From IMG/VR virus record IMGVR_UViG_3300042691_050360, positions 102,523-166,522 of that record: 64,000 nt of DNA. The stretch is one strand, 5' to 3'. Shown piece by piece: positions 933 through 44,429 of this stretch. Origin of the DNA: a virus. The position numbers and the translations under genes are program-made. Under the pieces are notes generated by a model that was not told the DNA's origin, made no database searches, and worked only from the letters and a program-made list of their open reading frames with translations. Numbering within the stretch: the stretch's first letter is position 1; every line of letters begins with the position of its first letter.

Positions 933-1009
933 TGGTGGAGCCGACGGGGTTCGAACCCGCAAGACTTCTGATTGCAAATCAGACGCTTTCCCAAATAAGC
1001 TTCGGCCCC
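933..1009 (-). tRNA. tRNA-Ala(UGC)
   Basis: Acceptor GGGGCCG/CGGCTCC with G3:U70; anticodon arm TCTGA-TT TGC AA-TCAGA; T-loop TTCGAAC; A73 and encoded CCA. Confidence 0.95.
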
Positions 1010-1015
1010 GAAAAC

Positions 1016-1092
1016 TGGTCAGTTAGGTGAGATTTGAACTCACACACCTTTGAGTCACAATCAAAGGGCTCTACCATTTAAGCTACTAACTT
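1016..1092 (-). tRNA. tRNA-His(GUG), atypical
   Basis: Anticodon arm TTTGA-TT GTG AC-TCAAA; T-arm GTGAG-TTCAAAT-CTCAC; CCA end. A1:G72 mismatch, A73 and no encoded G-1. Confidence 0.85.
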
Positions 1093-1095
1093 GTG

Positions 1096-1172
1096 TGGTG
1101 TCGTGTGAAAGACTCGAACTTTCAAATTTCAGGTTCTCAACCTGTTGCCTCTACCAATTTGGCTAACACGAC
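1096..1172 (-). tRNA. tRNA-Leu(GAG) with a short variable loop
   Basis: Acceptor GTCGTGT/ACACGAC; 3-bp D-stem GCC/GGC; anticodon CAGG-TT GAG AA-CCTG; T-arm GAAAG-TTCGAGT-CTTTC; A73-CCA. Confidence 0.9.
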
Positions 1173-1175
1173 GTT

Positions 1176-1255
1176 TGGTACCAGCGGCGAGATTCGAACT
1201 CGCAAAAGCTACGGTTCTAAACCGTATTGTTGTACCATTCACTTGCCACGCTGGT
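1176..1255 (-). tRNA. tRNA-Leu(UAG) with a short variable loop and a weak D-arm
   Basis: Acceptor ACCAGCG/CGCTGGT; anticodon arm TACGG-TT TAG AA-CCGTA; T-arm GCGAG-TTCGAAT-CTCGC; A73-CCA. Confidence 0.85.
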
Positions 1256-1263
1256 AGAAATCT

Positions 1264-1348
1264 TGGTGGAGACAGTAGGACTCGAACCTACGAACCGATT
1301 AAAGCACTGGGTTACAGCCAGTTGTAATTGCCGCTATACGATGTCTCC
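1264..1348 (-). tRNA. tRNA-Tyr(GUA)
   Basis: Acceptor GGAGACA/TGTCTCC; anticodon arm ACTGG-CT GTA AC-CCAGT; long variable region; T-loop TTCGAGT; A73-CCA. Confidence 0.95.
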
Positions 1349-1357
1349 AGAAAAACT

Positions 1358-1436
1358 TGGTCTGCGTGACAAGATTCGAACTTGTGTGCTTGACCTCCCA
1401 AGGGCCACGAGGTAGACCAGACTCCTCAACACGCAG
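1358..1436 (-). tRNA. tRNA-Pro(UGG)
   Basis: Acceptor CTGCGTG/CACGCAG with C1:G72 and A73; anticodon arm TGGCC-CT TGG GA-GGTCA; T-loop TTCGAAT; CCA. Confidence 0.95.
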
Positions 1437-1445
1437 ATAAATTTT

Positions 1446-1526
1446 TGGCTGGATGAAGGTCGTCCTTAGTCATCCACTTACGGGTCACCACTTTGGAGAG
1501 TTTGATTTCAACCCTGGCACCACCCC
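1446..1526 (-). ncRNA. unclassified GC-rich structured element ending in GCCA (possible degenerate tRNA or tRNA-like RNA)
   Basis: Occupies the first slot of the tRNA array and ends ...TCATCCA-G-CCA. It has hairpins TGGATG/CATCCA and AGGGTT/AACTCT but no TTCRA T-loop. Confidence 0.3.
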
Positions 1527-1549
1527 GATATTTAATTGTCAATGTTCGT

Positions 1550-1590
1550 AAAAGAAAAACCCCCGAAAGATTTTAGTCCTTCGGGGGTTT
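1550..1590 (-). terminator. intrinsic terminator (attenuator 3:4 hairpin) upstream of the tRNA array
   Basis: 14-bp stem AAACCCCCGAAGGA/TCTTTCGGGGGTTT with one G:U pair, a 6-nt loop, and a TTTTTCTTTT tract. Confidence 0.9.
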
Positions 1591-1616
1591 GCAGCTTGTC
1601 GATACGCAACGAGCCA

Positions 1617-1670
1617 CTACCCCGAAGAGGGGGCGAGTGCTGGATATAGATGGCTGAGCGTATTGATCAT
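1617..1670 (-). CDS. attenuator leader peptide MINTLSHLYPALAPSSG (17 aa)
   Basis: ATG ATC AAT ACG CTC AGC CAT CTA TAT CCA GCA CTC GCC CCC TCT TCG GGG TAG. An AGGA SD lies 8 nt upstream. Codons 7-12 match the six downstream tRNAs, and the 3' end is complementary to the terminator 5' arm. Confidence 0.85.
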   Translation of the reverse strand: MINTLSHLYPALAPSSG

Positions 1671-1703
1671 TTTTGTGTTCCTAAATTGTTTTACAAGAGT
1701 TAA

Positions 1704-1730
1704 GACGATTATTCCTCTAAGAAAGTTTCA
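1704..1730 (-). promoter_or_regulatory. candidate ECF-sigma-type promoter TGAAAC-N17-CGTC for the leader/tRNA operon
   Basis: TGAAAC at 1730-1725, a 17-nt spacer, and CGTC at 1707-1704. This matches the Bacillus SigM/SigW/SigX-type consensus. An alternative TGTAAAAC motif lies at 1695-1688. Confidence 0.45.
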
Positions 1731-10847: not shown

Positions 10848-13800
10848 ATGCCAGATCCATATGAAAATCCAGATGTCACACCGTGTTTAGGCACTTACAC
10901 ATGGGTTCCCACCACGCCACCAAATTTTGGTGGATTTAACTTCACCAGGGGGTTTTCAAGTCTTATAATAGACAGGGGGTCTTTCAGGAACTATTGGTAT
11001 AAAAATCTTTTAGAGAAAAACATTCTAGTCAGAACCTTTTCAGATAATACCTCATCGGGATCTCCATATAATCCGATAAAAAACTCTACCAGGTCACTAG
11101 CATTAGGCTTTCCTGTAAAGATAGGAAATGGAGACAATGTTGCAATATCTGAAGTGAAAAGTGAAAGTTTAATAGAGTTTGATTTTCTCACTGACAGTCA
11201 GAAGAGGCTTTCTTGTATTCAAATTAATTATGATTTATCTGTTTTTGCTAATGATGAGAATTATAATTTTGATCTAAATCCCCCGGTTCCAGCTGTTTTG
11301 GTTTATGGCAAAACCTCTTCTGGTGCTGAAGAATTAATAACAACAGATGTTTTTAAGGGCTTGAATTTAACCAGAACCAGGAGCACCTTAAATGAATCAA
11401 ATTTAGTATCCGCAAATAATTCAGGCTCGCCAGATTCCGGCCCATATTTTGTTAATTTCAAAATAAAGATAAAAGAGGAGATCCTTGACAGATCTAAATT
11501 CCCTCAGTACAAAAGCGTAATTTTTAAGATAAATCCAGCTATTGTATCATTGCCCTCAAGCTTGGTTTTTGTTATAAAAAACATAATGTTCTTTACTGCA
11601 GATCGTGTTAATTTTAGGTTTGCGGCGGAGTCAGATCAATTGCCATGTAAGGCCCTTGGTTACTCGATGGCGATTGACGGAACTTTTTTTCCAGCACTTG
11701 CACTAGGGGCTTCATTGGCTTCAGCCGCTGGAGGAGTTCTTTCAGGAGTTTCAGTGGGCACAATGGGTTTATTTATTTGGCCATCGATCTTACCTGATAA
11801 TTGCAACATAGATGTGAAATTATTCAATCCCGATTTCATATCTAATTCACCAGGATTTGCTCATTCATTGAACCTTCATTTGTATATTTTCACTATGCCC
11901 GTTTTTGGGCCACTAGGTGATTTTTTACTTCCGGGAGTTTTACAGCCTCATTTTGGCGTAATATTGGGTCCAAAAAGCTTTACCCAGCAATGGATTTTTT
12001 ATGGAAATAGCAATAATAACAATCTTCAACTGGCGGTAATGAACTCCGCATTGTTCAAGAAAAATTCGGGCTTGGTGACATTGCTACAAGGAGAACAAGC
12101 CGTTGGAGAGGTAAAACAAATTCGACCCTTGGTCAGTGGTTTTTCTTCAATTGTAAAAAATCAACCTTACTATGAACAGCTCGGGGTTTCAACTACCGGC
12201 GGATTTAAAAATGATTATGTAGATGAATTTGGTATTCAGAGTCAATCTGAAACATATAATGGATCAGTTCCCCGCCTCACTCCATTCACGGCACTGGAAC
12301 CAGTGGCAAATTTCCCGAGAACCTCAAAACAACAATTCGCTTATTCAACATTTTTGTTTGAAACTGAGCCCGATTTATTTAATTTGTTTACAGAATCTGC
12401 ACCCTGTCTTTTGTTTAAGTGCTCAAGTTCATCAGGGTTTTCTGATAGCATATTTATAGAGCCAGGATTTTTATATGCATCTTTAAATTGTTTCTCAACA
12501 GATGCCTCAGGCATGTTTGACACTAAATTAGTTTACAGATTCTTTTTAGTATCTAAAGACGCCACTCCAACACCCACCGATCCATTAACTAAAACAATAA
12601 AGATACAAGAATCTGGAACTAATGATTCTTCTATAATAATTGAGCCAGTGGATCGCTCGTGGGATTTTTCAAACACACTGGTTACAGGAAATATAGTTGG
12701 TGATCTTAATACGGTAGAGACAGCTGAGATTATAAACCAGTCTCTAAGAACATTCAGTCCATTTGATGGCAAGCCTTATGATCTTTATTGCGGCGTTTAT
12801 GCTATGTCAAGCTTGAATGACAGCTTTTCTGGCTATGATTTAACAAAATATTCAACATTAGACTTGCCAACTGTTACTTTTTCAATCAATAATGATTTTA
12901 TCATCCAACTTCCAATTTATTACAGAAAATCTTATGCCAATGGCGGAACGCTGCAAGCACAAAGAGATTTTGGATTAAAAGGGCGATATACTTCGGATAA
13001 ATTAAGCTACACAATTATAACAGAAAAATACAACGGAAGTCCTTTTTCCGGGGGTACTTACAGCGGTAGCATAGACTCATTCGACGGTGTAAGCGGTTTG
13101 CTCACTTTTGTTGAAAGCTCCACTGCACCTTCTGATAAAACAAAATTTTCAATACAAGCCGGCGAGAATATTACCGAAACAGATTATGTCTTATTGGTTG
13201 AATCCACCTCCAATGCAAGAATTAATTCAGGGGAGTGGGTTTTAAGTTTTAGTGCGGACGTTAGTGCGGGCGGTTCTAACATTGAAGCTAAATTTGAAAT
13301 TGATTTGGTTGACAGAAGGAGTTCCAATTTAATATTGAAGGTTTTAAGCAGTGAGTTTCAGCCAATTTTTGCGTCAGTTGGTGACTCGCCTGCTTCAAAG
13401 ACTTGCACCGCCAATATCACAGTTCCCTTCTTTCTTCCGCAGAGCGAGGGTTTGTTGGTTGTAAGAATACTATTCAGAAATAAAACAGCTTCCTTAGCCA
13501 CTGTTTCTGTTGATAAAATCACCTTAGAAGAGAATACTCTTGAACAATTTAGTTTTATACCTCAGCAAATAAGAAATTATTTAATAGGATTTTATGAAGA
13601 CTTGCCAATTCAGCCCGATTCTTTTGTTTCAGGTTGTCAATCATTCATACTAAAGCTTGATATGGGCTCTGGAACGATCATATATGATCCGCAGAAGGGC
13701 CTCAGTATTACAGGCGTGATCTATAGCCCCACTTGGGCAGTGGATTTGCCGGAGAATATGGAGATTCAATACAATGCCACTCAAATCAACAAGAGCAGAA

Positions 13801-15164
13801 CTGGTAGTATTGTGAACGGAGTGGAACCATATAAAATATTCTTCAGAACTGGCCAATCTAATGATGTGAAAGTTATAGATACAAAGCGGCACCAAAATGG
13901 CTTGATTGTAACAATGGCTAATACTAAAACTAATACATCTGATAATGCTATACAACAGATTGTGTCTGAGAGTTTCTTTAGATTAACCACCTACACTGAT
14001 AAAGTCACCACGCCTTTAAGCAACTTAAATCTCGTTGAATTAGATTTAAAAAACCCAATCTTGTCAAAAAGTGATAACAACAACATTCAACTCGCCCTTT
14101 CCGGCCAGAATCTAAACAATGCAAATATAACAACTTTGCTCTTTAACAATGAAGCACCTGGATATTACTCCACTCAGCCAAGCGACGGCGGTACATTTAT
14201 GCCGATTAACGACCCCGGTTCTGTTGTAAGTAAGTCGGCTAATTGTGCTATAACCACTTTTGATTTCAAGGATGATAAATCCAATAATATAGGCGTAACT
14301 GCAGGTGGTAATTTAATATACTCCCTGAATCAATCTTCCTCTACATCTCAAGCTACTAATTTTACTTTAGTTGAGGGGGATCCAGCAAACAATAGCACCA
14401 ACGAAGAGCTTGGCAACTTTGATAACCTATATATTTCCTCAGGTGTTGATAACCAATATGTTTTTTGCGGCCCCGCTCAAGTCACTTTTCCTGGAATATT
14501 GCTTACGAGCCAGAATTGTGTTGTGTTTTATGTGTTTGCTAAAACCAACTCTTTATCCTCTCAGGCGAAATCAAACAGAGATTTTTTCAACATTAAACCC
14601 GGAACTGCCATTTATGGAAGATTTTTAAGTGGTGCCAGGATTTCCACTGTATTTTTAGTTTTTGATTTTGAGGGCTATTGCGAGCAAAACGGTGGAGTAA
14701 ATTTTGGCACAAACGAATTTCCAATTATTAATCAGATCACTGTTTGCAAGAATGATATTTATTCTTATGGTGAAAGCTTTAATTTAGTTTTTGATTGTGC
14801 TGGAAAAATATTTGTTGCAAGATCTGTGTTTACCCAAAACAACGCATTTACGTCCGGCCTTGGGATTGTTTATGGCAATCTTGAAACATCATCTGATGCC
14901 GCTGGTTCAAAATTTTTAAATTGTTTAAATAATATGGTTTCCAATTCTTCGCTTTATAAATTCAGATATAAAGACCGAAGTGGTATTCCTAAAGCTTTTT
15001 ATAATAAAGACTTAGATTTTTCACAAAAAATAGGATTTGTTGATTTTGACGGCGTTTACATGGGTGTACAATTTTACATAGGCTCAGATATTTATGAGAT
15101 TGTGATTGATAAATCTTATGTACTCGAAGGCGAGTACAGGAAAATCGGAGAAATTAATGAATAG
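10848..15164 (+). CDS. large virion structural protein (1438 aa; tail/baseplate region)
   Basis: Long beta-rich S/N/F-rich ORF within the structural block. Confidence 0.7.
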   Translation: MPDPYENPDVTPCLGTYTWVPTTPPNFGGFNFTRGFSSLIIDRGSFRNYWYKNLLEKNILVRTFSDNTSSGSPYNPIKNSTRSLALGFPVKIGNGDNVAISEVKSESLIEFDFLTDSQKRLSCIQINYDLSVFANDENYNFDLNPPVPAVLVYGKTSSGAEELITTDVFKGLNLTRTRSTLNESNLVSANNSGSPDSGPYFVNFKIKIKEEILDRSKFPQYKSVIFKINPAIVSLPSSLVFVIKNIMFFTADRVNFRFAAESDQLPCKALGYSMAIDGTFFPALALGASLASAAGGVLSGVSVGTMGLFIWPSILPDNCNIDVKLFNPDFISNSPGFAHSLNLHLYIFTMPVFGPLGDFLLPGVLQPHFGVILGPKSFTQQWIFYGNSNNNNLQLAVMNSALFKKNSGLVTLLQGEQAVGEVKQIRPLVSGFSSIVKNQPYYEQLGVSTTGGFKNDYVDEFGIQSQSETYNGSVPRLTPFTALEPVANFPRTSKQQFAYSTFLFETEPDLFNLFTESAPCLLFKCSSSSGFSDSIFIEPGFLYASLNCFSTDASGMFDTKLVYRFFLVSKDATPTPTDPLTKTIKIQESGTNDSSIIIEPVDRSWDFSNTLVTGNIVGDLNTVETAEIINQSLRTFSPFDGKPYDLYCGVYAMSSLNDSFSGYDLTKYSTLDLPTVTFSINNDFIIQLPIYYRKSYANGGTLQAQRDFGLKGRYTSDKLSYTIITEKYNGSPFSGGTYSGSIDSFDGVSGLLTFVESSTAPSDKTKFSIQAGENITETDYVLLVESTSNARINSGEWVLSFSADVSAGGSNIEAKFEIDLVDRRSSNLILKVLSSEFQPIFASVGDSPASKTCTANITVPFFLPQSEGLLVVRILFRNKTASLATVSVDKITLEENTLEQFSFIPQQIRNYLIGFYEDLPIQPDSFVSGCQSFILKLDMGSGTIIYDPQKGLSITGVIYSPTWAVDLPENMEIQYNATQINKSRTGSIVNGVEPYKIFFRTGQSNDVKVIDTKRHQNGLIVTMANTKTNTSDNAIQQIVSESFFRLTTYTDKVTTPLSNLNLVELDLKNPILSKSDNNNIQLALSGQNLNNANITTLLFNNEAPGYYSTQPSDGGTFMPINDPGSVVSKSANCAITTFDFKDDKSNNIGVTAGGNLIYSLNQSSSTSQATNFTLVEGDPANNSTNEELGNFDNLYISSGVDNQYVFCGPAQVTFPGILLTSQNCVVFYVFAKTNSLSSQAKSNRDFFNIKPGTAIYGRFLSGARISTVFLVFDFEGYCEQNGGVNFGTNEFPIINQITVCKNDIYSYGESFNLVFDCAGKIFVARSVFTQNNAFTSGLGIVYGNLETSSDAAGSKFLNCLNNMVSNSSLYKFRYKDRSGIPKAFYNKDLDFSQKIGFVDFDGVYMGVQFYIGSDIYEIVIDKSYVLEGEYRKIGEINE

Positions 15165-31817: not shown

Positions 31818-34800
31818 ATGTCTTGGAATCTAAAAATTATACCGAGGGGATTGCTTCTCAGTAAATATGTTAAGAATATTGTTTTGGTGAATCCTGACAG
31901 CATAAAAGACGTTGACCGCAATTCTCTAATTTCAGATCAGTATCAGACTTTTAATCAGGCAAGTAACACGGCAAACATTGTTTTTCAGCTTGCTTTGTTT
32001 AATAATGATCCACAGAATGAATCATCCGCTCCGGGAATCTCAGGAATCAATTATATTCAGATTTCAAACGACCCTGAGTTTAATGATGTATATACTGCTG
32101 CACCAATTAAATTCAGCTCAGAATACAATTTAAATACAAATTATTCTGTGGATTTAAACAGCTACATCACTCCTAGCACCACCTTACCAACGCTTCAGAG
32201 TATAACTTTCACCACTCAATCTGGAATTGGAAACATAAATGTTTTAAACTGGCCTCTTTCTGGTTCATCTGGTGCCAAAAAGGTATATATAGCCGTAAAT
32301 GTCACCCTTAGCAATGGTGACACTGCGACATACCCCCAGGGGCTGGATATATTTGACGAGATAACGGTTTGCTCAAGCATAATTGCTTCCCCGAACACTC
32401 CTGAGGCAATAAATGCCACAGTTGATAACTTCGCTGGTTCTCCTTTATATTATGAAGCAGATTCTGCCAGCAATGCAGGGACTACAAACAACGATGACTC
32501 TGGCGTGGCTTCTTATTTCTGGGATGGATTAATCCTCAACTCCACTTCAAATCTTGCAAGGAATAATTATTCCCAGGAAGGGCTTCAACTTTTCAAAACC
32601 GCCGATGTTCTGAGTGCTCAGAAAAACCAAGAGAATTTGCCGATTTCATTCTCGACAAGCTCTGTGCAACCATCTTGGTCTTCTAGCTTTTATAGAACGT
32701 ATAGATCAGCCACTCCATTTAAAATAAGTGCCACGGATAATATCTATTTCTTCGAGGCTTTTGTTAATAATAACCAGAACACTTTAAATTACATCTCTGG
32801 CTCAAGTTTCTTTTACGAATTTAATATTTCAAGCAGCACGGGTGCGACAAAATATCTCAGACAGCAGCTTGCTTTTGATAATACATTTAAAACTGTTACT
32901 GTTTACACGTCTGTAGACGATACCTCATGGTCATCAGATCCATCAAATGTTCCTTCGGCTTTCAGCAATACAGTAGTTATTACGAATCCTGATATTGTTG
33001 CACAAATCACCGGTGCGGGAATATTCACTACATTAGTGGAGCTTTTGAGCTCATCTGGCGGGATATATCAGGCTAAGCTGATCTTCAAGCCTCAAAATTC
33101 CAAAAATAATATTGTTGTTTCTGAATCATTTTTCTCATCTAGTCTACTGAACACAAGCGTTAATATCTACGGTGAATTCAGATTTTATATTCAGAACGCC
33201 ACATATAATGTAATTCTAGAATCAACACAATATGGAATTTGCCGTGGAACTATCTCAGCGGCTGTCATGCCAAATGACAAAATAAATACTAATTATAGTC
33301 TTCCCGTTGAAAATAATACAGCGAGTTTTTACGACTCTCAGAGCCTGAATACTTGGTTTACCCTTAACAATTCACCTTCCAGTGGCGTAACAAACAACGC
33401 AACCGTAAGTGGATTTCCAACAGTTCAATTTTATAACAATCAGGAAAATGATTCAGAAAATAATATTTCTGCAACTGAGATTCAATCTTCTATTCCAACA
33501 TTTTCAAATGAAGTTACTCTCACAGCTTCTTTTAATCTGCCTACTACAAATCCAAAAATCATTAACACAGCTTATTCTTTTGATTCAAATTTGGACTTTG
33601 AAGATTTTATATTTGATGATCTTTTGAAAACTTCTGCTGGGGTAACTCTTCCACAGAGCAATTCAAAATATAATTATTATGCGGCCATTAGCTATTCAGG
33701 ATCTAACAATCTTGAACTAAATGTTTTTGATGTTGGCACGGGACAAACATGTTCTATTACCACTTCTGCCACTTCGAATCTTTTCTTTTACTCACAAGAA
33801 AATAACACAGGCAATTTAACTCCGCCTTTAGTTGTACGAAGCGTGGGTAATCTTTCAACATCGGCAACATTCTCTGCGTGGATTGGAACGAGCGAGCCAT
33901 TTAACTACTCCACTTCTGCGTTGATTACGAATCTTATTACTGTCCAAAACCAAGGCAATGTTCCCATTTCAATCAATACTGGTGTAGGGCTTGGAATTAA
34001 CACAGTTGCCCCAGGTGAGCCTTATGTCACAAAACTTAGCTCAATAACAGCGAGCTCACCAAACACATTCATTATTTTGTCTAATAACTCAGCGATCACG
34101 TCTGGTGTTAATTTCTTGTATGATTTTGGTCAGCAGGGAACAATTACAGAACTAAACTTCACAGTTCAGATTGTGACTCCGCCTGAGTGCCCTTCTTCGC
34201 TTCCAAGTTTCAAGTATTCGATTGAAGTATCTAGTGATTTCATAAACTGGTCTTATGTTTCTCCAGCATCTGCAACAGATGTCTTCAGTCCTACCACCGG
34301 AAATGTCAAATTGACATTTGCTCTAAATCAGACTAATTGCAGATATGCAAGGATAAGAATTTATTACGATGTTGCTGTAACCTTCGATCCAAGAAACACT
34401 TATAGATATTCTTCGTTATCAGGAACTCAAACTCCAAATTCACTCGCGGCGAATACTGGCAAATTCATACTAGGATTCACAGACACGAGTGCTAAGAATT
34501 CATCTTTGGGGCAGCTATACAACCAGCCTACATACATGCGGCAGTTTTATACAAATAGCTCGACCTATGCCTCGGTGATTTTTGATTTCTCTGATTACCA
34601 AAATGACATAGCTGGCCCGGTATATCTTAGCCTTCTTACTAACAATGGAGAAGAAAGATTCCACACTGTAAATTCTGGTTTTAATTTAGGTTTAACCAAT
34701 ACACATGTTGTAACCCTGTCTGTTTCTAGAAAAGGCGTAAATGATGCATTCTACTTACAGCCAAGGGTAACTCTTGCCGTTAATAATTCGTCAACTCCGC

Positions 34801-37800
34801 TTGTTTTTGAGTTGGATGATGTTCTTTCTGAGCCAGGCGATACACAGGATCTTATTTTTGGCTACTATCCGTTCTTCTCGCTTGTAGGAAATGGGAATAT
34901 CTATCTCAGGTCTTCTGTCATTAAGGGAACTTACAATGCTTCACTTGATTACTCAAAAAATAAAACATATTTCTCTCTGTTCTCATCTGAAAACTCAGAC
35001 TATACAGCCAGCTATGGTAAAAACATATTAAGGCAAAATACTTATGATATTTCCACGTTTGACTATCCGCTGGTAAATACTTTCTTCCAATACAACACAA
35101 TCAAGGGTTTCTACTATGAAAATGTTACCTTTACAGTAAGGGCGGTTATCACCTCCCCTTCAGGTTTATTTGGTCCCGCCTATACAGATGGTGTCTATCT
35201 TCAAGCTTGCGATTATGTTTTGCTCGCCGGTCAACTAGATAAATCTTCAAACGGAGTTTATCAAGTTCAGGCTCGGCAATGGGTAAAAAAGAAAGCCAAT
35301 CCTTCTGGGTCTGGAAAAGCAGAGCCGACAGTTCTTGTTTCAGAGGGTAATGTTTTTGGTGATACTCTATGGATGCAAGATGTAATTTCCACAGAATGGT
35401 TGAGTAATACAATCGCATGCCCATTTGTTCTTGACAACAACACCTTGCTGAACACAGGGATATCAAGTATATACAAGTATCCTCAGTTCATAAAACTAGG
35501 TGTAGGAGTGAAGGCTATAAGTCAAATTAGCAGTTTGAATCAAGTGAGATTAAAGCTGCTCAATTCTCCAGCGGGATATGTAAGAGAGACAGACCTAGCC
35601 ACACAATGGAATTCTGTTTTTCAAAATGGAGAACTATATAATTTACAAGAGAAGTCAAATTCAAATAACACAATATTTATGAATTTTGCTATTTCAAGCT
35701 CGCAAATTTCTGGAATATCTACAAGCTTGCTTCCGTCCACTTACAACATGCTTGTGAGTTTCTCCGGAAATTTCGCCCCCGCGATAACTAATAATTCTGA
35801 TTTTATACTTCCAGATTATGGAAGCAGTTACAGATTGTTTACCAATCCTGAATTGATTTACCAGCTTTTCTCAACTTATGAGTCTATTACTCTAAGTGCC
35901 GCAAGCACTTCAATTGTCAACACAAGTGTGTACGGGTTGAGCGTTTCAAATATCAAAACCCCACAAACCGGCTTTAGTACCGATGTTGTTTTAGACGATA
36001 CTGCTCCGGTGGTTGGAATCCTTTCAAAGGCTGTTGATAATGCTAAAAGCGTTTACATGAGCATTTCTACTGCTGTTGACACAGGAGCAGGTCTGTCAAT
36101 CGCAAGAATCATTCAAAAGAATCCTGCAGGTGAAACCCTTTATGGATCTTGGTTCGGTTTTAATACTAATAGTTTTTCGGGTATTTCATCAGTGGTAGCC
36201 TATCCAAGTTTTGTTGCAAATCAATTTGGTGTTACCACGGGCGAACCACTTTCTGGCTATTATAGATACAGTCTTCAAGTTGCAGATAGAGTGGGAAATA
36301 TTTCTCAAACCAACTCAGTAGAGAGCTTCTACTATGAATCAGCTCTTGTTGATACACAAGGCCCAAGTGCGGCTGTTAATTTTGTCAATTCTGATACTTT
36401 TTCTCCGATTTCATTTACCACATCTAGCATTATAACTACTCAGCTACTGGCACAAGACTCTCTTTCAGATGTTAAAGCTTTTAGATACAGAATTTTGCCT
36501 AGCGGAGATTTTGGAAACTGGCTCGACTACAATGAATTCGCTCAGGTATTCTTGCCAGAATCAATTGAGGATGGCATTCTTTCGGTGCAATTCCAATTCA
36601 AAGATTATGGAAATAATGTTTTGTATAGCACTGCAACAATTTCCGGAGAACAAGTTTACATATATACCTGGAATATGGTATCAAAGCTAATTGCTAATGT
36701 TCTGTTTACGGTAATTGAATCAACAATATTCAACGACAATCCGGTTTTAATAATTGGTGCTTCTAAGTCTGACCAAGCCACTCTTTATGTCTGGGATAAT
36801 TCAAAACTCATTGAATTAACTTATCCTGGGTTGCTCGGATGTAAGGCTATCACCGCGATGCTTGCAGTGGATGGAAAAGTTATAATAGCAACCGAAAATG
36901 GAAGAACTTTTGTTTACGAAAACGGAATTATGACTGGCCCATTCGCTTCATTCACATGGGGCGGAACCACATTATCAATTTCCAAATTTGAGACTCATAA
37001 ATATCCAGAAGAATCAATTTCCTATGTTTACGCCACTACATTAAATATTCCAAGAATATATAGAACTCCTGTTGATAATTTAAAGAATCTATCTTGGCAA
37101 GTGGTTCAAACTCCACCAATTAGCGTGGACAGAATTGATGTTTTGAATTCAGGTCTTTGGTCTGGCACAGGATTTTCTTATTCAATCTCATCGAGCTACC
37201 AAGCCGCAACTCTTACACCGGGATTGCTTTACGGAATCTCAAGCGTGATTGTGACCAACTCTGGTTCGAATATTAATTCGATTCCAACCATAACTGTTGG
37301 CGGTCCGATGACCGGAGTGGGTCTGAGCCCTGTTCTACAAGGCTATATATCAAAACTCAATCTTCTATCGGGCGGAATAGGTTATACCGCTGGTGCTACA
37401 GTGACAATACAAGCACCTGCCGCTGGTGGTGTTCAAGCCACTGGCATTGCAATAACAAACTCAAACGGCACAATAACATCGGTAAGGCTTAATTCTGGCG
37501 GTCAAGGATATGGTTACACCAACACTAACCCGCTTGTGACTATCTCTGGCAATCTTGGAGTTGGAAGCCAGGCCACTGCTTCTTCAAGCACCCAGTTCGA
37601 TTCCATTTATTCAATCAATGTTACGTCGGCGGGAATTGGAACGACAAGCAGTATTACCCTGAGCTCACCAGGTGGTGCGGTATTAACACCAAGTTTCCTT
37701 TATAGAGTTAATCAATTAAATATCACAAGTCCAGGTTTTGGATATACCAATTCTCCCAGCGTTCTGGTTAATGGACTTTCAACGATTGCTTCTGCTACAG

Positions 37801-40800
37801 CTGAGTACGGATCTATACAATCTGTTACTGTAATCGGTTCAGCTGCAACATTCCCGGCCACTTTAGCTCCAGACATACAGCTCAGCGGGGGAGTGGCAAC
37901 AAATTGGGTTGGGGCTTTCTCAACATCAAGCATTTCATTCTCAACCGGTGCTTTAAATACTTTCCCCGGATTTGTGCTAAGCCAAGTTTCTGTTTCTGAA
38001 AGCGGATTCGGACTAGGCGTAGTGCCCTCGATCTCTTTCTCCACATCTCCGATTTATAATCCGGAATTTAAATTTATCTTGTCGGATGATATCACTTTAT
38101 ATTCCGCTTCCGGTTCAATTTATGATATTAAATCTTTTGACAACAAATTGTTCTTCACCAGCTCTACAAATGGAATTGTCAAACTAGGATTGTCAAGCGG
38201 CATTTTCTCTGCAACTCAGATTGAGCTGAACACATCTGCAAATAACTTTAACGCATTAAGCCCATATCAGCTTTCTTCCTACAATAGCGGTCTTGGCACT
38301 AATTTGTTCTTCTCTATTTCTGGTCAGCCACTGATTGGTAGAGTTGACAAATCAAACAAAGAATATGTGTTTCAAAGTTATAAAGACAATATTCTCATAT
38401 TCAAGCCTTATAATTTTGACATCCTTTCCAACTGGCAACTGAAGAAAATAATTAGCACAAACGGAGTGGGCACTGTTTCTCACGGTTCATCCGCTGATAG
38501 TTTATTAATTTACAGTCAAAATGCCCAAGTTTTCTACGAATCAACTAAAGATAATACTTGGTTTAATCGATGCCAAACAAGCAGCAATTATATGGTTACT
38601 CTTAATTTTGAGGCCATTGAGGGCACACAATCTTTAGAGATATCTACATTTGATACTACCTTAAAAGCGGCATTTACATTTGTCCCGGTTATCAACACTG
38701 GAATTGGCACCACCAATAACGCGGGTCAAAATAATTTAGCATCTTATGATGTCGATGTAAATTCTCTGGTTATTTCTTATGGTAACCAAAGTTATCAACA
38801 AATTATAATTGATGCAAAAGATATTTACAGCATTACTTTTGTGAAATCTGCCAACAATCTATTTGTTTATAACGACCAAGATCTTATTGCTCAGCAAAAT
38901 AATTTCTTTACGTCTATAGGCGTTAGTCCTATAATTAAGTTCGGAACTATATTTGAACCTACGACATTAATTGCCAATAACCAAAGCATCAATACTTTTG
39001 GTGTGCCTGAAACGATTAATACTTCTAACTTTATCTGGAAGCAGATTAAGTTTTCATTTAATATCGAAAATATTGATCTTGGTTCAGATAATTATTCACT
39101 GAGCATACCATATGTGGTGCCTAACTCTGCTGCTGTAAGAGTTCTCAAAACTATTGACAACAATCTTTACGCAGTTACTAAATCATTAAATGACAGCAGA
39201 TTTACATCTATGTTGCCAGATGTTGGCTCCAAAGTCTTTAGAATGGGGAGTGATATATGGACTGATGTTACTGGTAACTTTGAAACATACAATTCTGGAG
39301 ATAGCACATCTTATATTATAACCTCCCCCAATGATATAGGCAATTTAAATAAATCATTCTTTATTACCGGTGTTACCAAAACCATACAAAGCAGAAGCGA
39401 AATTGGGAATATCCTTGCTGGATTGTCAACGAGTATTGTTTATGAACAGGCAGAGAACGCCACGCTTGTAATTATATTCCCTCGAAATGCGAATCCGTCA
39501 GGTCAATCTGTGCTTGTCTCATCGAGCAACAGTTTGATTTATGTTCCTGGTTCCGTTTACTTCCCGAGTGATGTGTTCAGTAAGGTGATCAGCGTAGGCG
39601 TGGGTTCAACCGCTAATGCAACCTCTGCAATTATTTCTGTTACCGACGGCATCAGCACGTCTCAATCCCCGATCACTGTTTTCCCCATAGGAATTAGTAG
39701 CATCGGATTAAATACATCATCGTTTGTTGCTTATTCAGATGATCAAGTAATTGCAAATATTCAACTCAACGCCATAACGCAAAGCCCTGTAACTATTAAT
39801 TTAAATAGTACAGATTCAAGCAGGCTAAGGTCTCCACTTGGCATTGTCACAGTTCCTGCGGGATCTATAGGTATAATAACATCTCTTTCTGTGGGATTAA
39901 CGACATCAATTCAAAAGAATATTTCTATTATCGCTTCTTATCGAAGCACTTCTGGTATTGCAACGATTACCGCTTTACCATTTTCATTTAGTTTCAGCGT
40001 TAATAATAGGAACTTTGTCGGAAATCAGGGTGTAACCACAATAGGTGCAACAGCGTCTATTAACAGATCGCCGATTGGTGTCCTAACTGTTAATTTGAAT
40101 TCTACGGGTCAAACAATTCTAGGGGCACCTACAAGTGCATACATCTATCCTTCAACATTCAGCACATCTCAGGTTCTCTCTGTGGGAAGTGCTGTAACAC
40201 AAAACACAAATATTTTCATTACAGCTTTAATACCAGGCTCTGTTTCAACCAGCCTTTCAACTGCTGCACCATTTATTATCTCATCAGCAGTTTCTGATCT
40301 TCCCACTCCTGTTTTTGGGCTTCAAACCGCCACGGTTACTTTCACTATTAATTCAGCTCCTCTTTCCAATCTTTTGATAAGAAATATTGTAACCAGCACT
40401 ACTATGCTGAATACTGTATTCCCGAGCTTCTCAACAATTTTTGCTGGTTCTTCCACAACATCTTTTGGCGTTTCTACAGGACTTCAATATGGACAAGGCT
40501 TGGCTATAACTGTTCAAGGGGCTCCTCTTGGGTTTAATACATCTCCTACTCCCGCCCTCACTATGTTGAATGATAGGTGGAGAGTAACAAATCTTATTGT
40601 TTCTCCGAATAATATTGTTGGTGGTTCTGCCTACGCTGATGGTAGCGTACAGCAATTCGGTGTTACTGCTACATTAAATGTTGGACTTGCGACGACAGTT
40701 TATATTTCATCAAGCTCAACAAGGGTTGATACGCGGAACATTTCATTTGGAACTTCAGGAACTGGTGCGGCAACCTCAACTGGATACAGCACTGGTCTAA

Positions 40801-43800
40801 GCACGACAGCAATAACCGGATTTGCAATAACAGCCGTAGGGCCATATGGAATTACTACAACTGTAACCGGTCTTACTTTAAATCCATTTTTAATTTCAAG
40901 CTTCTCAACTAGCTATATCTGGAACGGTGTTGCAACCCAAAGTCCAGCTTATATCGTTGGGGGAATCGGAGCTACTGCTGTGGCTACAATTACCTTGAAC
41001 GCTTACGTTCTTACTGGGCTTCAGACTGTGTTATATTCAACAATAGGAACATTTATTACCAGGCCTGGTTTCGCTACACTCGGGGTTTCATCTATTTTAA
41101 TTGGCTCTAATTCCACCTCGATATTCCTGACATCACTAAGGGTGCCTTCAAGCTTTACGACGAGCGTCACCGCTCGGCTTGTTGGAGATGGAATATCTAC
41201 CGCATTTATTAACGTGCAACCTATACCAAGTTATTTCGCGGTCTTTGACCCGATTGTTTCTGGTTCGGCAAGCAGATTGTATCTATTCCCTTCAGCCCCC
41301 CTTCCGATTAGTCAGGGCGTTGCTGTAACTTATTCAAACGGGGTGACTGGAAACATAAGCTTAAACGCTAATGTAACCGGAATTGCAACAGAAATTCCAT
41401 TTAGATCGTTTGGTTTAAGCACAACATTTAAGGCAGAGGTTCAAACACTTGGCATAACTCAGACATATTATGTAACTGGATACAATACCTCCGGTAATGC
41501 ATTTTCTGTAGGATACAATTATTATGGCGAACTTTCTAAGAATTACCCTGTGATCGGGCCATTGATCGGTTCAGCAGATCGTGTATATATGGGTCTGTCC
41601 AGCGTTCTTAAGACCGCATCCGGCTATCATCACAATCTTGCACTAGATTCAAAAGGCGAAGTATTCAGTATTGGATTAAACACATACAATCAGCTTGGTT
41701 ATCTGGGTGCTTCCACAAATATATTCTATCAAGTTGGATTACCAACCACATTCAAGGTGAGAGATATTTTTGCACAGCGAAATAGCTCCTATGTGATCAC
41801 TGCCGACAACAATCTTTACGCTTGGGGCGGTAACAATCTTTATGCACTTGGAACATCTACTATTTCCATTTCTACATCGATGCCAAGATTGGTTGACACA
41901 AATGTTCAACTCTTTTCAGCTTATGAAGATAACGCGGCCTATGTTACATTTAATAATCAAACTGGAATACAATCTGTGTTCCAGTTTGGTGCTGGCAGAA
42001 CAATAGTTACGGGATTTGCGATCACCCAGCTTGCTATTTTTGGCTCGTCTAGACCCATAAGTAATTTAATTATAAGTGTTCTCGATCAAGGCCCAAATCA
42101 CACTGTGGCGGGTGGAACCTGGACGGACACAGCTACTGGCTTAAGCTCGAACGGTGTTTTCGCGTGGGGTGCAAATTCGTTCTACCAAACTGGTTTCACC
42201 TCCACTCTTGGTGTTTCCACTGTGCCGAATATCCTTATAGGATTTAACACGTTTAATCAGAAGGCTCTGATTCCATACAATCAACATATAATCGCCGACT
42301 ATAACTTCTCGCTTGTTGAGGGTGCTTATACCCCAACCAATCAATCTTATGTCTCCCAGGTTCAGATGCAAACCCTAGGCATCGGTTACACTGCCGCCCC
42401 ATTGATAACTTTTTCATCTCCGCCAAATTCAATTATTGCTGTAACTGCAATAGGAACTGCTACCTTGAACAATCTTGGGCAAGTCAGAAGCACAACAGTC
42501 CTTGCACAAGGCAGTGGCTATGTTTCGGGGGCTGGGGTTACGTTCTCAGATCCTACCGGCATTACTTCTAATCCTGTTACTGCTCTTGGAACAGCAATTG
42601 TTTCAGGAAACCAAGTGGTTAACATTCACATCACAAATCCAGGGTTTGGATACACCTCTCCACCATTGGTGATAATATCTCCTGTATCCGGTGGCGGTGG
42701 TGCAATAGGCATAGCTTCTATTGTCCAAGGTCAGATAACAGGGATTATAATCACAAACCCAGGCTTTGGATACACACAATCTGCAGTGGTTACTATTGGA
42801 ACATCTGCTGGCACACACATTGGATCAGGTGCTACGGCGTTGGTTGAGCTGGCCAGCTCTTCTGTTCCTGTGACTAATTTTACTATAGTTGGTGCCGCCA
42901 TATCTTCAAATAGTTCAGGGTTCGGCTTGGGTTTTGCCGCTACAAATGTGGGCAGAACTTTGTCGGCAAATACCCCAGATATTAACCTCACTAAGATAAT
43001 TAAGAACCCGCTCCACTATTATTGGCTTAATGCCAATGGAACAGCAATCGCTTCGGGCGGTGCAATACCGAGCGTTAATTTTGTGCCAGCTTCAATATCT
43101 AATTCACTCGTTTACTTGTTCCCGGCTAACAACTCGGGGCTTGAAAACTCTGAGCTTTATTCTTACGTTCCATCGATAATTGGTCAAGTTAACGGGTTAT
43201 ATACATATCGAGTGTTTGGCAATGATTTTGTTGGAACCACCCTTCAACCTTTGAATTTCTCGTTGCAACCTCACAGCTTTATTGGAGCATACACAATTGA
43301 TAGCTTTGGAGGGTTTGCCGCATCAGTTGATACAGGAAATTATCTTAACGTATTTTATCACGATACTGAGAATGAAGTTTCAGAATCATGGATTCAAGCT
43401 GCACAGCTTCCAGGGTTTGTTGATATGACTTTAGCTCAAGCGGATGTCACTCAGGTAGACCCAAGAGCAAAGAGAATTTATGTTACAACCCTGCAAGGCT
43501 CGGCAACAAACACAACGATTAGTATTTATATTGGTAATGTTATAACCGAAACACAATCTCAAAACTTCAATACCTCGCCTGTACAGGTTTTTGTAGCAAG
43601 GGGTAATCCAACAAAGATTGCTTCGGCTTATATCAGCCACTACAGGGGTGAGTATTTTACCCATAATGGGGTAACTTATGATTGGGTGAAGTCAGATGTT
43701 AATATTACTATTGGATATCAAGATGGGACAATTGAGCTTTATGGCAACGCCACACATTACACCGTGGATGGAGGAATTGTTCTTATTTCTTCGTGGTCAC

Positions 43801-44429
43801 CAAATGGCAATCCAATAACAGCTCTAGATTCAATCTGTGATTGGCAGTTCCCAAATCTTAAGTATCTATTCGCTGGAACGAGTAATGGTCAAATTTATTG
43901 TTATCAGGGTGATGGAGATCCGCTTGATACATACATACAGTCTCAGCTTTCGATAGCACAGTCTCCTGTGTTGCTCAACACATTAACACTTCCTGCGTTA
44001 TTTGGGTATGCAAAAGATATTCAGAATTTTATTGCTGGCGTAGTGATGGTGTCCACCTCGACAAATAAATTGGTCTTTATCAGGATTCAAGATCTGAGTA
44101 TAATTGGCTACATATCGGTGCCAGGCGTGATCACTTCTATGACATCAACAGTTAATTCAGAGAATGCTCAATTGCCGGTCTCATTATTAACTGACACTCC
44201 TGTTGCGTGTGTTACTGCACTCGCGGGCGGGGTTGTCACTCCTTACGAGTATTATGCCACTGCAATACAAAATTATGAAATGAGCCTGGACTACGCAAAT
44301 ATTGCTGGTGCCTATCAGACTGTTACAATTGACGGAACTGTAGTTGGTGCACCTATGACGAGCATTGTAGATATCTCAACAAATGACACATTCACAATCA
44401 TCGTTGATTCTTCCAATCCAGCAATATAA
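31818..44429 (+). CDS. giant multidomain virion protein (4203 aa) with RCC1-like repeats, Ig-like domains and GxGY repeats
   Basis: RCC1-like ASGYHHNLALDSKGEVFSIGLNTYNQLG; repeated ITNPGFGYT...P.V.I...G.GA; discoidin-like YSIEVSSDFINW...CRYARIRI. Confidence 0.8.
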   Translation: MSWNLKIIPRGLLLSKYVKNIVLVNPDSIKDVDRNSLISDQYQTFNQASNTANIVFQLALFNNDPQNESSAPGISGINYIQISNDPEFNDVYTAAPIKFSSEYNLNTNYSVDLNSYITPSTTLPTLQSITFTTQSGIGNINVLNWPLSGSSGAKKVYIAVNVTLSNGDTATYPQGLDIFDEITVCSSIIASPNTPEAINATVDNFAGSPLYYEADSASNAGTTNNDDSGVASYFWDGLILNSTSNLARNNYSQEGLQLFKTADVLSAQKNQENLPISFSTSSVQPSWSSSFYRTYRSATPFKISATDNIYFFEAFVNNNQNTLNYISGSSFFYEFNISSSTGATKYLRQQLAFDNTFKTVTVYTSVDDTSWSSDPSNVPSAFSNTVVITNPDIVAQITGAGIFTTLVELLSSSGGIYQAKLIFKPQNSKNNIVVSESFFSSSLLNTSVNIYGEFRFYIQNATYNVILESTQYGICRGTISAAVMPNDKINTNYSLPVENNTASFYDSQSLNTWFTLNNSPSSGVTNNATVSGFPTVQFYNNQENDSENNISATEIQSSIPTFSNEVTLTASFNLPTTNPKIINTAYSFDSNLDFEDFIFDDLLKTSAGVTLPQSNSKYNYYAAISYSGSNNLELNVFDVGTGQTCSITTSATSNLFFYSQENNTGNLTPPLVVRSVGNLSTSATFSAWIGTSEPFNYSTSALITNLITVQNQGNVPISINTGVGLGINTVAPGEPYVTKLSSITASSPNTFIILSNNSAITSGVNFLYDFGQQGTITELNFTVQIVTPPECPSSLPSFKYSIEVSSDFINWSYVSPASATDVFSPTTGNVKLTFALNQTNCRYARIRIYYDVAVTFDPRNTYRYSSLSGTQTPNSLAANTGKFILGFTDTSAKNSSLGQLYNQPTYMRQFYTNSSTYASVIFDFSDYQNDIAGPVYLSLLTNNGEERFHTVNSGFNLGLTNTHVVTLSVSRKGVNDAFYLQPRVTLAVNNSSTPLVFELDDVLSEPGDTQDLIFGYYPFFSLVGNGNIYLRSSVIKGTYNASLDYSKNKTYFSLFSSENSDYTASYGKNILRQNTYDISTFDYPLVNTFFQYNTIKGFYYENVTFTVRAVITSPSGLFGPAYTDGVYLQACDYVLLAGQLDKSSNGVYQVQARQWVKKKANPSGSGKAEPTVLVSEGNVFGDTLWMQDVISTEWLSNTIACPFVLDNNTLLNTGISSIYKYPQFIKLGVGVKAISQISSLNQVRLKLLNSPAGYVRETDLATQWNSVFQNGELYNLQEKSNSNNTIFMNFAISSSQISGISTSLLPSTYNMLVSFSGNFAPAITNNSDFILPDYGSSYRLFTNPELIYQLFSTYESITLSAASTSIVNTSVYGLSVSNIKTPQTGFSTDVVLDDTAPVVGILSKAVDNAKSVYMSISTAVDTGAGLSIARIIQKNPAGETLYGSWFGFNTNSFSGISSVVAYPSFVANQFGVTTGEPLSGYYRYSLQVADRVGNISQTNSVESFYYESALVDTQGPSAAVNFVNSDTFSPISFTTSSIITTQLLAQDSLSDVKAFRYRILPSGDFGNWLDYNEFAQVFLPESIEDGILSVQFQFKDYGNNVLYSTATISGEQVYIYTWNMVSKLIANVLFTVIESTIFNDNPVLIIGASKSDQATLYVWDNSKLIELTYPGLLGCKAITAMLAVDGKVIIATENGRTFVYENGIMTGPFASFTWGGTTLSISKFETHKYPEESISYVYATTLNIPRIYRTPVDNLKNLSWQVVQTPPISVDRIDVLNSGLWSGTGFSYSISSSYQAATLTPGLLYGISSVIVTNSGSNINSIPTITVGGPMTGVGLSPVLQGYISKLNLLSGGIGYTAGATVTIQAPAAGGVQATGIAITNSNGTITSVRLNSGGQGYGYTNTNPLVTISGNLGVGSQATASSSTQFDSIYSINVTSAGIGTTSSITLSSPGGAVLTPSFLYRVNQLNITSPGFGYTNSPSVLVNGLSTIASATAEYGSIQSVTVIGSAATFPATLAPDIQLSGGVATNWVGAFSTSSISFSTGALNTFPGFVLSQVSVSESGFGLGVVPSISFSTSPIYNPEFKFILSDDITLYSASGSIYDIKSFDNKLFFTSSTNGIVKLGLSSGIFSATQIELNTSANNFNALSPYQLSSYNSGLGTNLFFSISGQPLIGRVDKSNKEYVFQSYKDNILIFKPYNFDILSNWQLKKIISTNGVGTVSHGSSADSLLIYSQNAQVFYESTKDNTWFNRCQTSSNYMVTLNFEAIEGTQSLEISTFDTTLKAAFTFVPVINTGIGTTNNAGQNNLASYDVDVNSLVISYGNQSYQQIIIDAKDIYSITFVKSANNLFVYNDQDLIAQQNNFFTSIGVSPIIKFGTIFEPTTLIANNQSINTFGVPETINTSNFIWKQIKFSFNIENIDLGSDNYSLSIPYVVPNSAAVRVLKTIDNNLYAVTKSLNDSRFTSMLPDVGSKVFRMGSDIWTDVTGNFETYNSGDSTSYIITSPNDIGNLNKSFFITGVTKTIQSRSEIGNILAGLSTSIVYEQAENATLVIIFPRNANPSGQSVLVSSSNSLIYVPGSVYFPSDVFSKVISVGVGSTANATSAIISVTDGISTSQSPITVFPIGISSIGLNTSSFVAYSDDQVIANIQLNAITQSPVTINLNSTDSSRLRSPLGIVTVPAGSIGIITSLSVGLTTSIQKNISIIASYRSTSGIATITALPFSFSFSVNNRNFVGNQGVTTIGATASINRSPIGVLTVNLNSTGQTILGAPTSAYIYPSTFSTSQVLSVGSAVTQNTNIFITALIPGSVSTSLSTAAPFIISSAVSDLPTPVFGLQTATVTFTINSAPLSNLLIRNIVTSTTMLNTVFPSFSTIFAGSSTTSFGVSTGLQYGQGLAITVQGAPLGFNTSPTPALTMLNDRWRVTNLIVSPNNIVGGSAYADGSVQQFGVTATLNVGLATTVYISSSSTRVDTRNISFGTSGTGAATSTGYSTGLSTTAITGFAITAVGPYGITTTVTGLTLNPFLISSFSTSYIWNGVATQSPAYIVGGIGATAVATITLNAYVLTGLQTVLYSTIGTFITRPGFATLGVSSILIGSNSTSIFLTSLRVPSSFTTSVTARLVGDGISTAFINVQPIPSYFAVFDPIVSGSASRLYLFPSAPLPISQGVAVTYSNGVTGNISLNANVTGIATEIPFRSFGLSTTFKAEVQTLGITQTYYVTGYNTSGNAFSVGYNYYGELSKNYPVIGPLIGSADRVYMGLSSVLKTASGYHHNLALDSKGEVFSIGLNTYNQLGYLGASTNIFYQVGLPTTFKVRDIFAQRNSSYVITADNNLYAWGGNNLYALGTSTISISTSMPRLVDTNVQLFSAYEDNAAYVTFNNQTGIQSVFQFGAGRTIVTGFAITQLAIFGSSRPISNLIISVLDQGPNHTVAGGTWTDTATGLSSNGVFAWGANSFYQTGFTSTLGVSTVPNILIGFNTFNQKALIPYNQHIIADYNFSLVEGAYTPTNQSYVSQVQMQTLGIGYTAAPLITFSSPPNSIIAVTAIGTATLNNLGQVRSTTVLAQGSGYVSGAGVTFSDPTGITSNPVTALGTAIVSGNQVVNIHITNPGFGYTSPPLVIISPVSGGGGAIGIASIVQGQITGIIITNPGFGYTQSAVVTIGTSAGTHIGSGATALVELASSSVPVTNFTIVGAAISSNSSGFGLGFAATNVGRTLSANTPDINLTKIIKNPLHYYWLNANGTAIASGGAIPSVNFVPASISNSLVYLFPANNSGLENSELYSYVPSIIGQVNGLYTYRVFGNDFVGTTLQPLNFSLQPHSFIGAYTIDSFGGFAASVDTGNYLNVFYHDTENEVSESWIQAAQLPGFVDMTLAQADVTQVDPRAKRIYVTTLQGSATNTTISIYIGNVITETQSQNFNTSPVQVFVARGNPTKIASAYISHYRGEYFTHNGVTYDWVKSDVNITIGYQDGTIELYGNATHYTVDGGIVLISSWSPNGNPITALDSICDWQFPNLKYLFAGTSNGQIYCYQGDGDPLDTYIQSQLSIAQSPVLLNTLTLPALFGYAKDIQNFIAGVVMVSTSTNKLVFIRIQDLSIIGYISVPGVITSMTSTVNSENAQLPVSLLTDTPVACVTALAGGVVTPYEYYATAIQNYEMSLDYANIAGAYQTVTIDGTVVGAPMTSIVDISTNDTFTIIVDSSNPAI

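Follow-up and report, generated by a model that had tools for sequence, protein, structure and literature searches.

A phage array of six tRNA genes is preceded by a short open reading frame (ORF) whose codons match those tRNAs and by an intrinsic terminator. We read this arrangement, with a probability of roughly 85%, as a ribosome-coupled leader-peptide transcription attenuator that has the tRNA array as its regulated product. The mechanism would be the known one of the trp and his type; its application to tRNA genes appears to be new. What phages gain from their tRNAs has been an unsettled question for ~50 years, with codon compensation and counter-defense as the competing explanations (PMC10264068). 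If tRNA arrays are switched by decoding speed at their own codons, the purpose of phage tRNAs becomes directly testable.

The leader, terminator, and array

The window (the whole stretch of DNA analyzed, 64 kb) is the terminal part of a 166.5-kb virus record with a GC content of 38%. This phage is most closely related to freshwater phage contigs 239-379 kb in length, and the record therefore probably represents roughly one half of the genome of a jumbo phage. A prepilin-like phage gene is 85% identical to a gene in an Armatimonadota metagenome-assembled genome (MAG), almost all of its remaining matches are also from Armatimonadota, and this single gene suggests Armatimonadota as the host phylum. 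Elsewhere in the window, a cluster of giant genes (31818-44429 and 48524-57724, plus strand) includes ORFs of 4203 and 3066 aa, which probably encode virion structural proteins. An upstream 307-aa ORF has no match in Pfam, PHROG, or PDB.

The tRNA cassette lies on the minus strand of the window and begins with a putative promoter at 1730-1704 (TGAAAC-N17-CGTC; start site estimated near 1697). The promoter-like motif of the original prediction is present, in a form that resembles sites of ECF sigma factors rather than of sigma-70. Both boxes are unchanged in five relatives, and genes for two ECF-like sigma factors are present in the phage. This motif, which was defined post hoc, has four sites in the 166-kb record, three of which immediately precede its three tRNA units. 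Genome-wide, its seven overlapping matches compare with 3-18 in shuffled sequences; it is not over-represented, and only its location is informative.

A Shine-Dalgarno (SD) sequence, AGGA (1682-1679), lies 8 nt 5' of the ATG of a 17-codon leader ORF (1670-1617; ATG at 1670, stop codon at 1619-1617), and AGGA or AGGU is found 8-10 nt upstream in every leader of the type-1 and type-2 families. The terminator (1590-1550) consists of a 14-pair stem at 1590-1557 followed by a U tract (fold z -4.6). Behind it are the genes for tRNA-Pro(UGG) (1436-1358), tRNA-Tyr(GUA) (1348-1264), tRNA-Leu(UAG) (1255-1176), tRNA-Leu(GAG) (1172-1096), tRNA-His(GUG) (1092-1016), and tRNA-Ala(UGC) (1009-933). ARAGORN returns precisely these six, and all of them are also backed by Rfam; the SD sequence, ORF, terminator, and tRNAs are all as originally described. 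BLASTN against cultured phages gave generic tRNA matches only.

Codons 7-12 of the leader (1652-1635) specify His, Leu(CUA), Tyr, Pro(CCA), Ala(GCA), and Leu(CUC), one for each tRNA of the array. A further CUC is codon 5, and codons 13-14 (Ala, Pro) lengthen the matched sensing block to 1652-1629. In 1e7 simulations of random 16-codon ORFs, a six-codon window covering all six classes arose with a frequency of 2e-6 under phage codon usage and 1.1e-5 under uniform usage, so that an earlier rough estimate of ~1e-5 holds. The six codons had no exact match when viral contigs were searched.

Leader and array matching at other loci

A second array lies 0.4 kb outside the window (record positions 102120-100285, minus strand) and repeats the part order of the first: promoter motif, SD sequence, 20-codon ORF, antiterminator, terminator, and boxA-like motif. 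It encodes tRNAs Gly-UCC, Phe, Ser-GCU, Ser-UGA, Gln-UUG, Val, Met, Cys, and Trp, four of which were missed or miscalled by ARAGORN and were read by hand; the Gln-UUG identity is supported by locus L016 and by an insert-free Gln at the same position in relatives. Codons 7-14 of leader 2 (Ser, Gln, Gly, Cys, Phe, Met, Trp, Ser) cover 8/9 tRNAs in eight consecutive codons (chance ~2e-7), and a Val codon is absent from the leader although the array has tRNA-Val. The amino-acid sets of the two arrays are nearly disjoint and the leader peptides wholly different. Codons assignable to array 1 and array 2 number 9 and 4 in leader 1 and 1 and 14 in leader 2 (Fisher p=0.001), and each leader fits its own array but not the other. 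The third tRNA unit of the genome (fMet, Glu) has the promoter motif and no leader. In G001, a complete relative, genes that stand alone (Lys, Arg, Asp/Asn/Thr, and fMet/Glu) likewise follow straight behind promoters and lack a leader.

The original prediction proposed a comparison of leader codons with array anticodons in related phages. Combined pattern and protein searches yielded 5 leader-1 variants, 11 leader-2 variants, and four more leader families (searches with single proteins gave none or one relative each), and the second cassette and the four further families all match their own arrays. At L026, a leader before one large array has 19/19 residues in the array set and covers 13/16 of its amino acids; at L030, a Phe/Asn/Cys array lies behind a leader rich in these three. 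In the 379-kb genome G002, a Leu-rich leader precedes Leu tRNAs, and a separate 43-codon leader covers 9/9 amino acids of its array. When six leaders were paired with six arrays in all orders, the observed pairing ranked 1/720 with both liberal and conservative tRNA sets, which were curated by hand and not blind.

The same design occurs in the cultured phage phiCbK, which grows on Caulobacter and has two tRNA blocks with terminators and leaders, the latter at record positions 49540-49680 and 51340-51440. One leader is made up nearly entirely of Ala, Leu, Ser, His, Thr, Lys, and Pro, and the tRNAs behind it are exactly those; the other contains Tyr, Arg, Gln, Phe, Val, Ile, and Asn and is followed by a matching block. 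No convincing leader lies within the 330 nt inspected at the first tRNA block of phiCbK (Trp, Gly, Gly, Glu, Asp). A cultured testbed is thus ready. Among the matches to a terminator-plus-boxA pattern, 5/7 were ordinary terminator-promoter junctions without adjoining tRNAs, and L005 has a tRNA array and a small ORF. Loci L039, L042, and L043 have no array within reach.

Relatives preserve the reading frame of the leaders. Among the five leader-1 variants the start, stop, and length are kept, six codons vary synonymously only, and His7, Tyr9, Pro10, Ala11, and Ala13 are fixed in 5/5; leader-2 variants are distinguished by insertions and deletions of whole codons and by an exchange between TAG and TAA. 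An Ile codon and tRNA-Ile are both missing here and at L017 and both present at L008, L012-14, L021, L025, and L032-34, a contrast that probably reflects one evolutionary event. The exact isoacceptor match that was first noticed stands for this genome and is not conserved: L008 and L021 retain CUC with Leu-UAG only, and L011 has CUU. At L012-14 an HNH insertion has eliminated the Leu, His, and Ala tRNAs, yet the leader is unaltered; L021 keeps a Trp codon, but its Trp-type tRNA has a UCG anticodon; the L025 leader has no Cys codon; and several type-1 leaders have an Arg CGA codon without an Arg tRNA in the corresponding array. As judged from these sequences, the conserved match is by amino acid and not by isoacceptor, and some relatives' matches have decayed.

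The predicted switch and its possible inputs

The terminator is supported by fold prediction and by compensatory changes among relatives, and prediction plus conservation point to a mutually exclusive antiterminator. In the latter (-24.8 kcal/mol, z -3.1), region 2 (1628-1619), which overlaps the final codons and the stop, can pair with 1588-1577 of the terminator 5' arm around a predicted inner hairpin (1617-1591) that has a different sequence in relatives. This 2:3 helix, 5-10 pairs long, persists in 13/13 variants; in L026 a double change has turned a G-C pair into A-U. Protector strands in region 1 (1663-1630) appear in minimum-free-energy (MFE) predictions only, with 1634-1630 pairing with 1623-1619 and, in naked RNA, 1663-1651 with 1616-1602; the 1:2 helix is present in the full-length MFE structure, and in nascent naked RNA 2:3 prevails (0.93). 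When a ribosome footprint is masked in the nascent RNA, the predicted probability of the antiterminator is 0.96 as long as the A site lies within codons 2-12 and falls to 0.53 at codon 13, 0.12 at codon 14, and 0 beyond. For the full-length RNA at equilibrium, the terminator prevails at every ribosome position, and the read-through decision must therefore be kinetic. This counts against the attenuator reading, as do the mismatches between leaders and arrays and the use of one codon per tRNA, a weak sensing device next to the tandem runs of hisL or pheL.

The modelled switch point lies just beyond the matched block in 6/6 leader families, and in most of them later codons match poorly. Among the last eight codons before the switch point, the matches in the six families number 7/8, 8/8, 8/8, 7/8, 5/8, and 7/8.

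In the proposed mechanism, RNA polymerase would start near 1697, probably using a phage ECF-like sigma factor, and a ribosome would load at the leader SD sequence. Fast decoding of His, Leu, Tyr, Pro, and Ala codons would carry the ribosome past codon 13-14, so that region 2 is covered, the terminator forms, and transcription ends at ~1550. A ribosome dwelling at or before codon 12 would leave region 2 free to pair with the emerging 5' arm of the terminator; the antiterminator would then let the polymerase read through, protected by boxA and Nus factors. Read-through would yield tRNAs for the leader's own codons, and the switch is expected to close again.

Directly 3' of the terminator is a boxA-like element (1547-1534), conserved after both terminators and in relatives. 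It resembles a motif in the rRNA leaders of five Armatimonadota-type MAGs and the boxA of E. coli (PMC6614797), and because of these likenesses it is probably a Nus-factor loading site for antitermination of the non-coding array rather than a -35 box. The second identity belongs to a different account of the locus, in which the terminator is a fixed, leaky one or closes a gene for a small RNA or peptide, the tRNAs are expressed through the leak or from the TTGACA at 1542, and the codon match is coincidental. The dominance of the terminator at equilibrium and the perfect TTGACA after it are in keeping with that account, which we nonetheless regard as very improbable: a codon match with a chance of <=1e-5 recurs in six families, the leader peptides of the arrays are wholly unlike each other, no -10 box follows the TTGACA of array 1, one in array 2 would fall within tRNA-Gly, and relatives have TTGAAA instead, as in the host rrn boxA. 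A promoter downstream of 1550, which the original prediction held would count against an attenuator, was looked for and not found; together with the codon match and the repeated leaders, this result supports the attenuator interpretation. One 200-nt contig from a freshwater metatranscriptome is identical to 1676-1477 and spans the leader and terminator, which is a weak hint; the RNA-seq run covers 200/5502 bases, its contigs show neither strand, ends, nor level, and the uncovered part was not used.

Since the product is tRNA, with one codon for each, the variable sensed by the attenuator is best read as decoding capacity. Host tRNA-targeting defense has about an even chance of being the main natural trigger, and ordinary shortage during infection a chance noticeably under even. 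A specific form of the attenuator, which falls only slightly short of an even bet, would be a modular sensor, programmed by one leader codon per tRNA of each array, that reads the tRNA pool of the host: destruction of any one host tRNA by an immune nuclease would turn on the replacement set, which would then turn itself off. If so, the leaders are a readable record of the tRNAs that a phage lineage expects to lose. Phage tRNAs are known to act against tRNA-cleaving defense, as T5 tRNA-Lys does against PARIS, which offers a reason for supplying tRNAs on demand (PMC11464382); regulation by attenuation is not described in that report.

The same switch may, with somewhat less confidence, be regarded as a supply-and-demand thermostat that responds to dwell time summed over the block, as opposed to the OR gate of the original prediction, and to general tRNA shortage in infection, rather than to single-tRNA loss or counter-defense. 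The shortage would come from an AT-rich phage in a GC-richer host and from host tRNA decay. Summation suits single codons per tRNA; the thermostat also fits the match by amino acid instead of isoacceptor and the phage GC content of 38% against 52-58% around rRNA in loci of the likely host lineage. However, large arrays whose leaders offer a single codon for each of as many as 13 amino acids (L026) fit sensing of the near-total loss of any one species, anticodon-burying inserts in two array-2 tRNAs hint at nuclease pressure, and both tRNA-cleaving defenses and rescue by phage tRNAs have been documented (PMC11464382; hypothesis in PMC10264068).

An improbable further alternative is that the leader senses amino-acid starvation or general translation arrest (by antibiotics or ribosome toxins) and not tRNA abundance. 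Any stall at or before codon 12 yields the antiterminator in the model, classical attenuators read the level of charged tRNA, and translational stress induces the trn array of Anabaena (PMC8421152). Yet a general sensor needs no array-specific codons, whereas each leader fits its own array, and extra tRNA presumably cannot cure a lack of amino acids. Direct binding of tRNAs by an untranslated leader is barely credible. T-box riboswitches do sense tRNA through a terminator/antiterminator switch (PMC4052509), but there the RNA itself contacts one or two tRNAs, and charging is read with no ribosome involved. The phage leader is far too short for a stem I with specifier loop, its folds lack a UGGN antiterminator bulge, Rfam reports no T-box, and the SD sequence, start, frame, and stop persist alongside synonymous changes.

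As an attenuator, the cassette would work like the trpL, hisL, and ilv leaders. Leader-peptide attenuators (those of amino-acid operons, namely trpL, hisL, pheL, leuL, and the multivalent ilvGMEDA and thr leaders, and that of pheST) likewise combine a short translated leader, mutually exclusive 2:3 and 3:4 helices, and an intrinsic terminator (PMC4046918, PMC3082878), and in both groups the control codons precede the antiterminator strand, which extends over the stop codon. The phage cassette has the general features of such a leader: an ORF with an SD sequence between promoter and genes, control codons related to those genes, a terminator and antiterminator, and, in footprint-masked folding, the geometry for stalling. 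It falls outside the hisL, trpL, and ilvL families proper, with single control codons, tRNA genes downstream, and a best non-tRNA Rfam match, to His_leader (1649-1551), that is weak (30 bits against a cut-off of 49, E 0.08). In contrast to amino-acid attenuators, which control enzymes or synthetases through tandem runs of codons for one to three amino acids, phage leaders have one codon for each of 5-13 amino acids, and their product reads the control codons. The cassette is also phage-borne and repeated at each array with other codons. The Anabaena trn operon (L-array) is similarly an accessory tRNA array that is silent until translation stress (PMC8421152, PMC10272220), but it is controlled at the promoter by the protein repressor TrcR, is not codon-specific, and is described in PMC8421152 with no mention of attenuation or a leader.

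The original prediction knew of no such attenuator for a tRNA array, and a search of the literature, with subscription papers outside its scope, likewise found no description of an attenuator of tRNA genes. With the cassette, attenuation would govern the supply of tRNAs as well as that of amino acids, and its logic would be many-input and self-correcting. Its read-through would report when, and in which host, a phage is short of tRNA, and its 150 nt would serve as a recodable reporter for tRNA-targeting defenses.

An 81-nt RNA and unusual tRNAs

The first slot of array 1 is occupied by an 81-nt RNA with a CCA end (1526-1446), a candidate new structured RNA. It forms two helices in which 14/14 pairs are kept in four phages, seven of them by double changes in L026, and an invariant linker is able to form a 3-bp pseudoknot. 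Counterparts lie on the minus strand at L021:19638-19735, L032:14820-14925, and L026:16492-16592. The RNA is optional in relatives, missing from L008 and L011-14, and has no Rfam match; matches to its pattern outside the phage family are attributed to chance. It is perhaps a tRNA mimic or decoy.

Several tRNAs of the array itself are unusual. Both Leu-anticodon tRNAs have a short variable arm, and Leu(UAG) also has a weak D stem and an Rfam score of 28 bits; relatives mostly have a normal class II Leu-UAG. The missing long variable arm makes the charging of both uncertain. The tRNA-His gene has A73 and a 1:72 mismatch.

In array 2, tRNA-Gly(UCC) (L001:5823-5914, minus strand; record 101913-101822) has a 17-nt anticodon-loop insert and a probable tRNA-Gln(UUG) (L001:4602-4699, minus strand; record 100698-100601) a 24-nt one, each pairing over the anticodon. 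Relatives carry insert-free versions of both, and we know of no bacterial splicing route for such inserts. A neighboring tRNA-like gene (L001:4706-4777, minus strand; same slot in L008, L011, and L021) has the anticodon CGC, UAC, or UGC among relatives and no Ala G3:U70, and is either a pseudogene or a misdecoding tRNA. Endonuclease genes have inserted into the tRNA arrays repeatedly and independently (L012-L014, L011, L017, L021, and L001:4811-5509), and several replace or split tRNA genes.

Further observations concern other loci. A Trp-like tRNA body with a UCG (Arg) anticodon occurs at L021 (reverse strand, ~6551) and L026 (~5970), possibly through an anticodon switch. Two tRNAs with a CUA anticodon (amber suppressors) in G002 (L090:1192-1360) suggest TAG recoding. 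An unrelated phage (L005:1600-1760, plus strand) has a 25-codon ORF, a terminator, and a possible antiterminator before a large tRNA/tmRNA region. At L082 (G001:C1 ~13660-13960), a tRNA-Leu upstream of tRNA-Met is split by an apparent group I intron.
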